A DNA stretch of 64,000 nt. Origin: an uncultured Chloroflexia bacterium. GTDB lineage: Bacteria > Chloroflexota > Dehalococcoidia > DSTF01 > JALHUB01. The first letter of the stretch is position 1. Each line of letters starts with the position of its first letter. A program made the translations under genes and the position numbers. Below are positions 20,947 to 40,706 of this stretch, piece by piece. The notes beneath the pieces were generated by a model, which made no database searches, had not been told where the DNA came from, and saw only the letters and a list, made by a program, of their open reading frames with translations. The stretch covers positions 224,001-288,000 of the forward strand of contig OY969814.1 in the NCBI GenBank assembly GCA_963703345.1, given 5' to 3'.

Positions 20947-22018
20947 CTATTTCCACGTTTGGCCTAGAATCCGTAGCCAGTTCTCGTGCGTCACCTTTCG
21001 CAGGGCTGCCTCGTCATAGCCGGCCGTCCGCAGCGCCTCGATGAGCTTCGGCAGGCCGGCAACGTCCCCCAACTCCGCCGGGATTGTCGAGCCATCGAAG
21101 TCCGAGCCGAGCGCGACGTGATCGATGCCGATGCGTGCGGCAACGTAGTCGAACGTGGCGCACAATCTCGGCGATCGGCGTGTCAGCCTCCTGGTGTCCG
21201 TCGGCGCGCAGATTGCCCGCAAAGAAGATGACGCCGATGACGCCGCCCGACGCGCCCACGGCGTCGAGCTGCTTATCGGTAAGGTTGCGGGTGGAGCGGC
21301 AGAGCGCGTGGGCGGCGGTATGAGTCACGGCGAGCGGCGCCTCGGAGAGGGCCGCCACGTCCCAGAAGCCGCGCTCGTTCAAGTGCGAGAGATCGAGCAT
21401 GATTCCCAGCTTGTTGCAGGCGCGGACAAGGTCCTTCCCGCGCTCGCTGAGACCGGGCCCTACGTCGGCCGAGCCGGGGAAACGGAATGGCGCGCCCGTG
21501 GCGAAGACGTTCGGACGGCTCCAAGCGATGCCCAGCGAGCGGAGGCCAGCGGAGTAGAAGACGTGCAGCGCGTCGAGGTCCGGGTCAATCGCCTCCGCGC
21601 CCTCGAAGTGCAAAACCGCGGCAATGTCCCCTCGGCGCAGGCAATCGGCGATTTCGTCGACGTTGCGGACCACGCGCAGCTTGCCGCCGGACTGCGTCTC
21701 CAAACGGAAGAGGTCCGCCATGACCGCCCTGGTGAACCGCTGCGCATAAGCCAGCCCTAGCGGCGGTGGCAGCGGGATGTCGTAGCCTTCGTCCCCGAAC
21801 GCGAGGGGACCTGGCGTGTCGTGGCCGGATTCGCTCGGAGGAACGAAGATCGCGAAGAAGCCGCCGCCGAAGCCCCCCTCGACGGCGCGCGGAAGGTCAA
21901 CGTGGCCGCGACTGCTGCGCTCTAGGAAAGAGCGGTCGCCGTCCGGACCGGGACAATGGAGGGCGACGAGTGTGTCGTTGTGGCCGTCGAAGACGGGCGG
22001 CCCGGATGGCGCAGGCAT
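20947..22018 (-). pseudogene. membrane dipeptidase (peptidase M19) with a single frameshift
   Basis: FDGHND, HFEG, DLSHLN in 21014-22018 frame; GIDHVALGSDFDG...ENWLR in the next frame; one extra base near 21151-21155. Confidence 0.85.
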
Positions 22019-22117
22019 TATGCCTCCTGGTTGCGGAATGCGGAGGGTCGGCAGGGAGCATGACGATATGGGGCTATACGGCCGGCTTCGTAGCGCGGCG
22101 AACCGACAGTCGAGAGA

Positions 22118-22366
22118 TCAGGCCGGTGCGGCGACTTCCCGCGGAAGCATTCCCTCCAAAATTCGTTCCAGCGCCATCGTGTGAGAACAGAGGCCTCTAC
22201 CGGCGAAGAAGTTGCATGAGCAGCGCCAGCCGCCGGCGTCGAAGGTGACGTTATGGGAGTGATTGTCACCCTGGAACTCGACGTCGAAGCTCTTGAAGCG
22301 CAAGCGGTGTCGCTCTTCAGAGTAGCGCTTTGCCTTCTCGATCTTGCCGATGAAGCTGGAATTCAT
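22118..22366 (-). CDS. small SWIM-type zinc finger protein
   Basis: WRCSC...LCSH (CxC-xn-CxH); AAGGAG RBS. Confidence 0.85.
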   Translation of the reverse strand: MNSSFIGKIEKAKRYSEERHRLRFKSFDVEFQGDNHSHNVTFDAGGWRCSCNFFAGRGLCSHTMALERILEGMLPREVAAPA

Positions 22367-22503
22367 CTCTGCTCTCCTTGGCTCAGAAACAGGGAATCAA
22401 AAGGCACCTGACGCCTACGCCGGTGCCTTGTTTCGATATTCAGTTGAAGCGGCGCCACCCATCCCTGTCATCACTCCTCAGTGGGGCGCTGTACTCTGAT
22501 ACT

Positions 22504-22532
22504 ATTCTATCGGCAGGCGGGAGGGTCGTCAA
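22504..22532 (-). promoter_or_regulatory. sigma70-type promoter for the SWIM-gene leader
   Basis: Minus strand TTGACG-17 nt-TAGAAT. Confidence 0.7.
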
Positions 22533-22577
22533 GACGGAGTTCATGTGGACAGATTCTGTGGAATCTGCTACAGTCGA

Positions 22578-22653
22578 TGGTGCGCCGGGGGAGATTCGAA
22601 CTCCCGACCTCAGGGTTAGCGGCCCTAAGCTCTATCCGCTGAGCTACCGGCGC
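22578..22653 (-). tRNA. atypical tRNA: Arg-type body, anticodon loop CCGCUAA (nominal anticodon GCU)
   Basis: GCGCCGG-TA-GCTC-AGCGGATA-GAGC-T-TAGGG-CCGCTAA-CCCTG-AGGTC-GGGAG-TTCGAAT-CTCCC-CCGGCGC-A-CCA; all four stems pair; 76 nt; encoded CCA. Confidence 0.9.
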
Positions 22654-22703
22654 ATCACGAGGAGAGTGGATCGTGCTAACAGGCGCCTGTCCACTCTCTT
22701 CTA

Positions 22704-23429
22704 TTATTCCGCTTCCTCCGAACTCGCTTGTGGCACCTCGTATTCCTTCATCTGGTCGATCAACGCGAACACGAAAACCCTATCTTCACCTTCGAGGTCG
22801 AAGGGGTTAAAGTCCACCGTCAGAGACACGCGTCCGCCGCTTCGCAATTTGAGTAGCCGAGTATGACCATCGCCCGACGGCGGATGTGGCCGATTCGTCT
22901 GGTCCGGCTTACTTTGTTGCCGGCGCTTCCCCTTGGTGTCGCCGGTGGCCGTCTTCTTCACCGGGGCTCTGTTCCGTGCCCTCTTTGATATATGGGAGGC
23001 AATTGGTAAGTCAGCGGCCCTGGCCGCGTTTATCAGAAAGCTCGCCGCCTTGCGGCGCGTAGGATCCGTCGCACCCAAATTCGTCAAGGCGTCGTCGAGC
23101 ATCTTAGGGGTCATGCTACGGAGTCCATCGACCAAGTCCGCGCCGTATGCGTCGCGTAACATCTCTGCTAACAGCGCTTTGCGTTGGTCGTTGTTAGCCC
23201 CAGCGAGATTCGCAAGTTTGTCCATAGGCACGTCCCCTTCAAGAAGTCCAAGGAACCGAAGCCCTGGCATTAGCTGCGCGCCAACACTTCCAGCGAACTT
23301 TGGCTCCCACAGAGAACGATCTATCCGGCTAGGCGTCGTACCCATGTCCTTTAGCCAATCAAGGCACGTGACGAAAGTCGCGTAGCTAATGTAGGTCGGT
23401 AGGCGGTGATCCGTCTGTTCTTGCACCAT
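22704..23429 (-). CDS. DUF5343-like hypothetical protein
   Basis: YISYATF...PSRIDRS...LMPGLRFLGLL...LRDAY pattern recalled for DUF5343; AAGGAG RBS; lower GC. Confidence 0.6.
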   Translation of the reverse strand: MVQEQTDHRLPTYISYATFVTCLDWLKDMGTTPSRIDRSLWEPKFAGSVGAQLMPGLRFLGLLEGDVPMDKLANLAGANNDQRKALLAEMLRDAYGADLVDGLRSMTPKMLDDALTNLGATDPTRRKAASFLINAARAADLPIASHISKRARNRAPVKKTATGDTKGKRRQQSKPDQTNRPHPPSGDGHTRLLKLRSGGRVSLTVDFNPFDLEGEDRVFVFALIDQMKEYEVPQASSEEAE

Positions 23430-23845
23430 TGTGGCATCGCTCCTTTCCCTTACCGCACACCTTACGCGAGAAGCAGTGCCGCTGTCAAGCGGTGCGCGGA
23501 CACAGTTTGAGGTTCTATTCGGCACTGCCCTTAAATAGTCGCTGGAAGGCGGGCGATGCCATGTTCCAGCGTGGTGACACACTGCGGCTTAGGGGTTCTG
23601 ACGGAAGGCCAGCAGTGCTTCGTGTTTGGAGGGATAAGGGTGACGGCTTATCGTTGTATTCTGAGCGTGGGTACGAAAAGGGCTGCCGGGTTGTCGGGCG
23701 CGGAGGCAACTGCTAGAATCGATAACTGCCTCGGTTATCGACGGTCCGTTTCCCGGGAGGTTGGGATGCGATCCCGGAAGAGTCGCTCTTCACCATATCC
23801 CCTGACGCCGCCTTTCCCGCCGCCTGCCGCACGGGCCGAATCCCC

Positions 23846-24826
23846 ATGAGCTACGCCGTCGCCTTCGAACCGTTCGATGCCGTGCGCGACGAGTGGCTGG
23901 CGCTCCTGTCGCCGCCCAGGGCGCGAGACGTCTTTCGTCACCCCCGCTGGCAGGAGGTCTGGCTGCAGGAGTTCGACCGCCAGGCCGACGCGCGTTTCCT
24001 GACGGTCCGGGACGGCGTCCGGCTCGTCGGGCTGGCCTCGCTGCTGGATGAGGGCGAGCGCGTAACCTTCCTCGGCGACCACAACATCTGCGACTATATG
24101 GACTTTGTGCTCGCCGCCGGCGGCGAGGAAGGCGTCCTGGCGGCGATTGTCGATGCGCTGTTCGAGGGCGGGCGCCGTGAGATAGCGCTCTGGGGGCTGC
24201 GAGAGGACTCGCCGACGCCGGCGCTGCTGTCGCGGCTGGCCGGGGAACGCGGCTGGAGCGTGACGCAGGAGGAAGAGGCGACCTGCCCGCAGCTCGACCT
24301 GCCGCCGACGTGGGGCGAGTACCTGGAGTCGCTGTCGGGCAAGAACCGCCATGAGCTGCGCCGGAAGATGCGCCGCTTCCAGAAGACGGTGGGCGAGATG
24401 GAGATGCGGGTGCTCTGCTCGCCGGCGGAGGTCGCGGAAGGGATGGACGATTTTCTGCGCCTGATGACGCTGAAGTCGGACAAGGCGCAATTCATGACGG
24501 AGACGATGGAGCGCTTCTTCCGTCGCATCGGCCCGGCGATGGCGGAGGAAGGTCTGGCCGGCATGTGCCTTTTCGAGCTGGGCGGTAAGCGGGTCGCGGG
24601 AGTTTTCTGCTTTGAGGACGCGGAGGAGACGCTGCTCTACAACAGCGGCTTCGACCCGCGCTACGCCGATCTTTCCGTTGGGCTGCTGTCGAAGGCGGGC
24701 TGCCTGCGGCATGCAATCGAGGACGGGCGGCGGCGACTGGACTTCCTGCGGGGGGACGAGCCGTATAAGTACGACCTGGGCGCCGGGGACCACCAGGTCT
24801 ATCGATGCCTTATCAAGAAGGCGTGA
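23846..24826 (+). CDS. CelD/BcsL-like (FemAB-fold) GNAT protein
   Basis: CDYMDF, LPPTWGEYLESLSGKNRHELRRK, YNSGFD, LDFLRGDEPYKY. Confidence 0.88.
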   Translation: MSYAVAFEPFDAVRDEWLALLSPPRARDVFRHPRWQEVWLQEFDRQADARFLTVRDGVRLVGLASLLDEGERVTFLGDHNICDYMDFVLAAGGEEGVLAAIVDALFEGGRREIALWGLREDSPTPALLSRLAGERGWSVTQEEEATCPQLDLPPTWGEYLESLSGKNRHELRRKMRRFQKTVGEMEMRVLCSPAEVAEGMDDFLRLMTLKSDKAQFMTETMERFFRRIGPAMAEEGLAGMCLFELGGKRVAGVFCFEDAEETLLYNSGFDPRYADLSVGLLSKAGCLRHAIEDGRRRLDFLRGDEPYKYDLGAGDHQVYRCLIKKA

Positions 24827-40630: not shown

Positions 40631-40706
40631 TGGCGTCCCTGGAGGGATTCGAACCCCCGACCCGCTGCTTAGAAGGCAGCCGCTCTATCCCCTGAGCTAC
40701 AGGGAC
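40631..40706 (-). tRNA. tRNA-Arg(UCU)
   Basis: GTCCCTG-TA-GCTC-AGGGGATA-GAGC-G-GCTGC-CTTCTAA-GCAGC-GGGTC-GGGGG-TTCGAAT-CCCTC-CAGGGAC-G-CCA. Confidence 0.97.

Follow-up and report, generated by a model that had tools for sequence, protein, structure and literature searches.

The tRNA-ProX genes of Streptomyces and Kitasatospora, as described in PMC10404621 and PMC11415595, are surplus, combine the identity of one amino acid with an anticodon for another, carry a base other than U at position 33 and occur in several anticodon versions, and the tRNA gene presented here is likewise in all of these respects. According to the same two reports, tRNA-ProX has a Pro body with C1:G72 and A33/A34 and an adjacent ProRSx gene (proSx), whereas the tRNA in the window, by which we mean the whole analysed stretch of 64,000 nt from an uncultured Chloroflexia bacterium, has G1-C72, C33, G34 and a DUF5343-like neighbour. 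Unlike tRNA-ProX, the window-type Arg body would suit a normal ArgRS and has no adjoining synthetase, mistranslation is here a prediction, and the wider class is carried by IS1/IS1595 elements and prophages of many phyla. Allo-tRNAs and irregular tRNA polycistrons are likewise mismatched and are described from mobile DNA of soil and sediment, near transposon and toxin-antitoxin genes, as partly active and partly inactive; they have an 8/4 or 9/3 acceptor branch and are mostly of the long-arm Ser type, whereas the window tRNA is a 7/5, short-arm Arg tRNA (PMC5389517). Phage tRNA-Arg(UCU/CCU) with altered loops, for which nuclease evasion was proposed in PMC10264068, share with it the A20 body, C33 and a mobile origin, but keep an Arg anticodon, while the purine at position 34 of the window tRNA changes the codon to Ser. 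The window tRNA works like tRNA-ProX and sits like the allo-tRNAs, and is a member of neither group.

Two further systems are relevant for the genetic setting. Transporter insertion sequences are known in the IS1 and IS1595 families, and relatives of the window tRNA likewise lie between terminal repeats, accompanied by a transposase (PF03400, weak, or PF12762) and small cargo genes; the window copy differs in having neither ends nor transposase. In type I toxin-antitoxin loci a cis-antisense RNA overlies a toxic gene. The geometry is shared, as a predicted convergent promoter and a hairpin bracket the candidate toxic gene; the toxin of type I loci is a peptide, whereas the candidate toxin in the window is a tRNA and its antisense RNA is predicted. 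In the literature covered, largely outside the subscription journals and mostly by abstract, neither Arg-bodied tRNAs with RCU anticodons nor tRNA cargo of IS1/IS1595 elements were described; the supplements of Mukai et al. (PMC5389517) may list such tRNAs.

The gene occupies positions 22578..22653 on the minus strand, on which the sequence, ARAGORN and Rfam agree. ARAGORN called it tRNA-Ser(gct), and it matched RF00005 with 65.4 bits (E 5.9e-12), compared with 68.4 for the tRNA-Arg(UCU) at 40631. The Rfam scan of 21900-23900 gave no family besides tRNA. The features typical of RF00005 were present, i.e., a 7/4/5/5 cloverleaf, G18G19, a UUC T-loop and CCA. The acceptor stem is Watson-Crick throughout, from G1-C72 to G7-C66, the variable loop has 5 nt, and A73 is followed by an encoded CCA. 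In canonical numbering the D-loop AGCGGAUA (22633..22640, minus strand) contains A20 in the order G18 G19 A20 U20a A21. The anticodon loop is CCGCUAA (22616..22622, minus strand; C32 C33 G34 C35 U36 A37 A38), in relatives CUACUAA. The sequence-only reading of this DNA had claimed an intact cloverleaf with A20, short variable loop, A73, CCA and the loop CCGCUAA, all borne out by the sequence, ARAGORN and RF00005, and its claim that the loop differs from that of the 40631 tRNA-Arg(UCU) solely at 33-34 was also correct. At 23 of 76 positions the two genes carry different letters, which rules out a recent origin of the window tRNA by copying from 40631.

The letters of the gene were found again in public contigs. 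A Logan contig of run X1, possibly related to the source sample, spans 22565-22774 at depth 3 with 0 differences, and a contig of run X2, from a separate study, contains the entire tRNA with 2 differences and different flanks. The earlier suggestion to check the loop bases in reads was thus answered by the X1 contig, which has identical letters and neither CTCCTAA nor CTTCTAA. Sequencing error was ruled out by the public contigs and by the finding of the loop class-wide. BLAST of the tRNA against plasmids and phages gave only matches of 75-80%, which were tRNA-Arg wherever they were labelled as tRNA.

The host genome (G000) is a single contig of 2.28 Mb with a GC content of 0.64. Its 16S and the label of one homologue point to a likely member of the Dehalococcoidia within the Chloroflexota. 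It contains a normal long-arm tRNA-Ser(GCU) in single copy at C1:1148450 and Arg tRNAs with five anticodons (UCG, UCU, GCG, CCU, CCG), therefore the window tRNA is surplus. The normal tRNA-Ser(GCU) also rules out a change of the genetic code, in agreement with the sequence-only reading. The CGY Arg codons are served by two GCG tRNAs, and ARAGORN called no ACG tRNA in G000. A second mismatched tRNA was seen at C1:1996314-1996402 (+), with a long arm, A73, Leu-like nearest host tRNAs and the Ser anticodon UGA; it comes after a hairpin and a 156-aa ORF, an arrangement that the window tRNA shares. At C1:1041019-1041088 and C1:1904771-1904849 partial, degenerate copies of tRNA-Arg(CCU) and tRNA-Lys(UUU) were found, which are probably scars of integration. 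Elsewhere in the window, a T-box leader (315-564, +) was noted upstream of ileS.

Bacterial Arg identity is listed in Table 1 of PMC9976931 as A20, C35, U/G36 and A/G73, and Ser identity as the long arm and G73. The window tRNA carries the Arg set A20, C35, U36, A73, and the tRNA-Ser traits of bacteria (long variable arm, G73, G2-C71) are replaced by a 5-nt loop, A73 and C2-G71; since these elements fit the Arg list and not that of Ser (PMC9976931), the body was assigned to the Arg type. The closest host tRNAs were Arg tRNAs (58 and 57), compared with 31-36 for the five tRNAs with Ser anticodons, where assignment by nearest tRNA is noisy (29 of 39 correct in leave-one-out). Both lines of evidence support the combination of an Arg-type body with a Ser anticodon proposed from the sequence alone. 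A20 by itself is not specific for Arg, since ordinary phage tRNA-Thr(UGU) made up 88 of the 120 matches listed for a control with A20 bodies and non-C35 anticodons, which is thus not a clean control. The host ArgRS is intact, with a frame of 571 aa, and the PGFINF loop of ArgRS may have a role in reading A20. The window tRNA retains A20, C35, U36 and A73, and normal Arg tRNAs differ from one another at position 34, so it is a predicted substrate of the host ArgRS. The GCU anticodon pairs with AGC/AGU and with no Arg codon, and the tRNA, if charged in this way, would likely insert Arg for Ser at these codons.

Of the 323 Ser codons counted across 15 genes of the host, 110 are AGY. The DUF5343-like gene uses AGY in 8 of its 14 Ser codons, so the cargo does not shield itself from AGY misreading. 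In transposases beside a tRNA AGY made up 79 of 226 Ser codons, against 464 of 1118 in the comparison (Fisher p 0.07; rank test p 0.02), a comparison confounded by GC and taxon, and AGY avoidance by the cargo was rejected as weak on these grounds. In an alignment of 14 transposases Ser occurred in none of the invariant Arg columns, which rules out a transposase requiring AGY to be read as Arg.

Among 41 genomes searched, the sole true homologue was found in G004, with 83% identity and anticodon ACU. A metagenome scan, with a pattern which fixed only the 3' 31 bases so that T-arm and CCA were constant by design, yielded five loci: one was identical to that of G004, three (L368-L370) were further copies with ACU, and the fifth was an ordinary tRNA-Arg(ACG). 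The subfamily is small, comprising five related distinct copies, in which all 105 of 105 stem cells were paired and 4 of 21 pairs had compensatory changes. Loop variation was confined to C33-G34 versus U33-A34, and UCU or CCU occurred in none of the five. The random variation of the loop among homologues that the sequence-only reading had named as a sign of decay was looked for and was absent, as only Y33 and R34 vary, and AGY reading is thereby preserved across the GCU and ACU versions. Three of the four nearest relatives (G004, L369, L370) are in IS1-type elements. In G004 and L370 the tRNA is enclosed by two IS1-type ends and the transposase is truncated or missing, and in L369 the tRNA precedes a whole transposase; the short flank of L368 contained neither IS ends nor transposase. 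DUF5343 is upstream of the tRNA in L368 and L369, and a HARE-HTH gene in L370.

C33 is unique to the window tRNA among the 53 ARAGORN tRNAs of the genome, the other 52 having U33. On viral contigs, 38 of 57 distinct C33 Arg-type tRNAs bear the ordinary anticodons UCU or CCU; the loops CCUCUAA (20) and CCCCUAA (18 of 57; L172-L234) are possibly a means of nuclease evasion. Yeast tRNA-Leu(GAG) is reported as not significantly impaired by C33 (PMC13492127), and tRNA-ProX are described as mistranslating despite A33 (PMC11415595, PMC10404621). The earlier suggestion that C33 keeps the tRNA off the ribosome was not upheld, given U33 in the relatives, the ordinary viral tRNAs and the yeast precedent, and C33 is no mark of ribosome exclusion. 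Reduced decoding efficiency is possible, because one review describes U33 as necessary for proper loop formation (PMC11122139).

Comparison with congeners delimited a strain-specific insert of 1,147 bp (22540..23686), with a GC content of 0.57 versus 0.64 in the genome. In eight congeners the flanks were conserved, and nothing matched 22540-23686 except the tRNA homologue of G004, located elsewhere. In both G008 and G003 the sequence runs unbroken through the insert site and bears different cargo there, while contigs of the other congeners break or rearrange. A Walker A-like motif was seen in the 413-aa ORF that G008 carries as cargo (L354); the cargo of G003 (L355) has a 384-aa ORF, which we take to resemble P63C proteins. 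An IS1-type end is found in G008 at the junction matching the window insert; at the window locus no IS end was found at up to 5 mismatches, and no IS1-type transposase in the window or in G000. The insert is probably what remains of a cargo element of the IS1 family. IS1595-type transposase genes lie at C1:431417 and C1:1640848, with no adjoining tRNA called by ARAGORN. Self-BLAST found no duplicated 3' piece of the tRNA in the genome, which rules out an integration scar (attL/attR) and with it the integration-target role offered by the sequence-only reading; the window ORFs scanned included no integrase.

Directly upstream of the tRNA and in the same orientation is a DUF5343-like gene of 241 aa (22704..23429, minus strand; weak Pfam match, E 0.1). 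A sense promoter was predicted 29 nt ahead of the start of this gene (TTGACA-18-TAAGGT; 23459..23488, minus strand) and is the likely source of the tRNA transcript. The left boundary is a host SWIM-finger gene (22118..22532, minus strand), outside the element and with its own promoter at 22504-22532. DUF5343 homologues in the order of the host lacked the tRNA in 4 of 4 loci, and the protein had no relative among the viral sequences; a role as fixed partner of the tRNA was ruled out on both counts.

The promoter scan predicted a sigma70 promoter with an extended -10, TGGACA-17-TACAGT (22546..22574, plus strand), directed antisense into the tRNA. A gap of 3 nt separates its -10 from the CCA, and the position is the same in 5 of 5 subfamily copies, two of which are consensus-perfect and a third 11/12, by scores based on rough sigma70 frequencies. 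One of the 53 genome tRNAs attains such a score, and its value equals that of the window tRNA, which belongs to the set. On the 5' side of the tRNA, folding gave a 13-bp hairpin followed by a U-rich tail on the plus strand (22659..22701), which may terminate the antisense RNA or serve as a processing element; a hairpin occupies this place in all five copies, and the terminator scan made no call there. The window hairpin folds at -28.2 on the plus strand versus -20.5, the plus strand being better in 3 of 5 copies, and the whole unit at -70.4 versus -57.3 kcal/mol on the minus strand. Palindromes of 10 bp in the hairpin loops of the window (22670-22690), G004, L369 and L370 are possible operator sites. 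Back-facing promoters scoring at least 8 occurred in 30 of 75 tRNA-less IS1-type elements versus 20 of 75 shuffled ones, in a wider window of 170 nt. In the wider class described below, the antisense promoter was seen in 6 of 24 transposase-adjacent members and in 8 of 116 members overall, and a sense promoter in 15 of 116. A pattern search of viral contigs for antisense promoters directly adjoining a tRNA of any kind returned 60 loci (56 distinct) with two ARAGORN tRNAs, both ordinary; the remaining loci were chance matches or phage promoters.

The wider class was defined by A20, a short arm and an RCU anticodon, and spans many bacterial phyla, some archaea and phages. The records include 58 viral loci and 119 from GTDB, the latter out of 29 of 64 parts (approximately 270 estimated overall), and the pattern occurs in 2 of 401 genomes of the taxonomic class of the host. 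The loops of the 118 parsed members, a few of which are chance matches, were CUGCUAA (36), CUACUAA (31), UUGCUAA (16), CCGCUAA (15), UUACUAA (11) and others (9). CCA is encoded in 34 of 118 and the full acceptor present in 64 of 118, by a rough rule for the 5' end. In viral members such as L032, L034 and L041, the D, anticodon and T arms are kept while the outer acceptor is unpaired and CCA absent. When the D-loop was left unconstrained, 37 of 62 distinct short-arm RCU tRNAs had a GGA-N-A loop. Tallies of nearest neighbours and of position 33 versus 34 pooled searches with different filters and were left out of the evidence. Among the D, anticodon and T stems of the class G-U outnumbered A-C by 58 to 13 and 9 to 3, which identifies the sense strand as the selected fold. 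An IS1-type or IS1595 transposase was found within 2.5 kb in 26 of 79 parsed long-flank loci (80 loci, one cut at a contig end), a raw proportion that may include a background such as ordinary tRNAs would show. The 7-bp acceptor is kept in 23 of the 26 transposase-adjacent members versus 22 of 54 others (53 and the G312 locus). No partner transferase or toxin family recurred beside class members, and the non-ribosomal Arg donor proposed in the sequence-only reading lost its footing for want of such a transferase.

A survey starting from transposases covered 175 loci, 95 of IS1 type and 80 of IS1595. It gave 23 tRNA calls with a T-loop, of which 16 scored at least 40 against the host set; 13 of these 16, with mostly Leu, Ser or Arg bodies by the noisy assignment given above, were mismatched between body and anticodon or had a 6-nt loop, two matched and one was ambiguous. 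Mismatched Leu bodies carried UGG, AGG, UGU, GGA and UUA, other mismatched long-arm bodies AUA and CGC, and Arg bodies GCU and twice ACU, both ACU rows being previously known loci, one of them recovered via the alignment seed. Beside transposases, L417 has a Leu body reading ochre, and L415 and L531 have 6-nt loops (L529-L608, L372-L466). The cargo pattern would fit anticodon swaps which preserve charging and change decoding.

We favour, with a probability of roughly 0.45, a reading in which the window tRNA would be charged by ArgRS and mistranslate Ser (AGY) codons to Arg, as cargo of an insertion sequence damped by predicted antisense transcription. It would be transcribed from the DUF5343 promoter through the hairpin and then undergo ordinary 5' and 3' maturation, CCA being encoded. 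Following the identity rules, the host ArgRS would charge it, and it would compete with the single tRNA-Ser(GCU) at AGY codons. The promoter 3 nt past CCA is predicted to give an antisense RNA of ~130 nt which stops at the hairpin and keeps the tRNA low. The payoff, speculatively, may lie in damage to the proteome under certain conditions, the tRNA serving as cargo for defence or maintenance. The mistranslator reading is weakened by the odd tRNAs linked to transposons and toxin-antitoxin genes, which section 16 of Mukai et al. (PMC5389517) describes as inactive in translation, some charged yet non-decoding, by the many class members without CCA or a complete acceptor, and by the lack of clear AGY avoidance. 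The same inactive and charged non-decoding tRNAs (PMC5389517) speak for a non-translating, tRNA-shaped RNA, which might act as decoy or RNA antitoxin against tRNA-attacking enzymes, or as a processing or insulating element of the cargo transcript. Such an RNA would be folded and perhaps charged, and as a decoy would expose a Ser(GCU)-like anticodon loop from a compact body. We regard this non-translating reading as rather unlikely while noting that many class members keep the D, anticodon and T arms though the outer acceptor stem and CCA are lost, that some elements contain toxin-antitoxin-like genes (DUF4258/DUF2283 in G004, Gp49 and HTH in L269), and that 6-nt loops occur among cargo tRNAs. 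However, transposase-linked copies retain the acceptor (23/26), no toxin family recurs and none lies inside the window insert, and C35-U36 is kept together with A20, as charging with miscoding predicts.

The five subfamily copies, with zero broken pairs, four compensatory changes and AGY reading in 5 of 5 with the parental UCU or CCU in none, speak against a neutral relic, i.e., a phage-type tRNA-Arg captured by an insertion sequence, silenced by a generic back-facing promoter and drifting at position 34. So do the retention of the tRNA in the deleted, non-autonomous elements G004 and L370 and the prevalence of mismatch across cargo bodies. We hold such a relic to be unlikely, even with the C33 Arg tRNAs of viruses, whose anticodons are normal in 38 of 57, back-facing promoters generic in IS1-type elements, the sporadic occurrence (2/401 genomes) and a window element without ends and transposase on its side. 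It is improbable that the product is instead the plus-strand antisense RNA, a mirror tRNA with hairpin of ~130 nt, whose loop UUAGCGG could pair with the loop of the host tRNA-Ser(GCU) via one G-U pair. The constant place of the promoter (5/5, two consensus-perfect, a third 11/12) and the better folding of the plus strand (unit -70.4 vs -57.3 kcal/mol; hairpin in 3/5) agree with an antisense product, and G-U pairing with the CUGCUAA loop would tolerate the Y33/R34 variation; against it are the class-wide G-U excess, which supports the sense fold, the kept D-loop GG, A20 and T-loop, and the promoter frequency of just 8/116, with sense promoters in 15/116. Taken further, the mistranslator reading would have IS1/IS1595 elements spread mistranslating tRNAs as RNA toxins, the window copy being silenced by cis-antisense RNA. 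The swaps would keep charging, with any anticodon allowed on Leu/Ser bodies and N34 alone changed on Arg bodies, and the locus would be an all-RNA toxin-antitoxin or abortive-infection module with the tRNA as toxin. We consider this extension doubtful.

The class is a warning that short-arm genes annotated as tRNA-Ser(GCT/ACT) are mislabelled. Few families of natural tRNAs with dual identity are known, and the window type would require no special synthetase. If it is merely a silent passenger, the class merits description and its importance is much smaller. The locus offers a test of why mobile elements carry tRNAs with the wrong anticodon, and potentially a ready Ser-to-Arg missense suppressor. 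If the mistranslator reading is true, horizontally spread mistranslation would be a general trait, distributed via insertion sequences.
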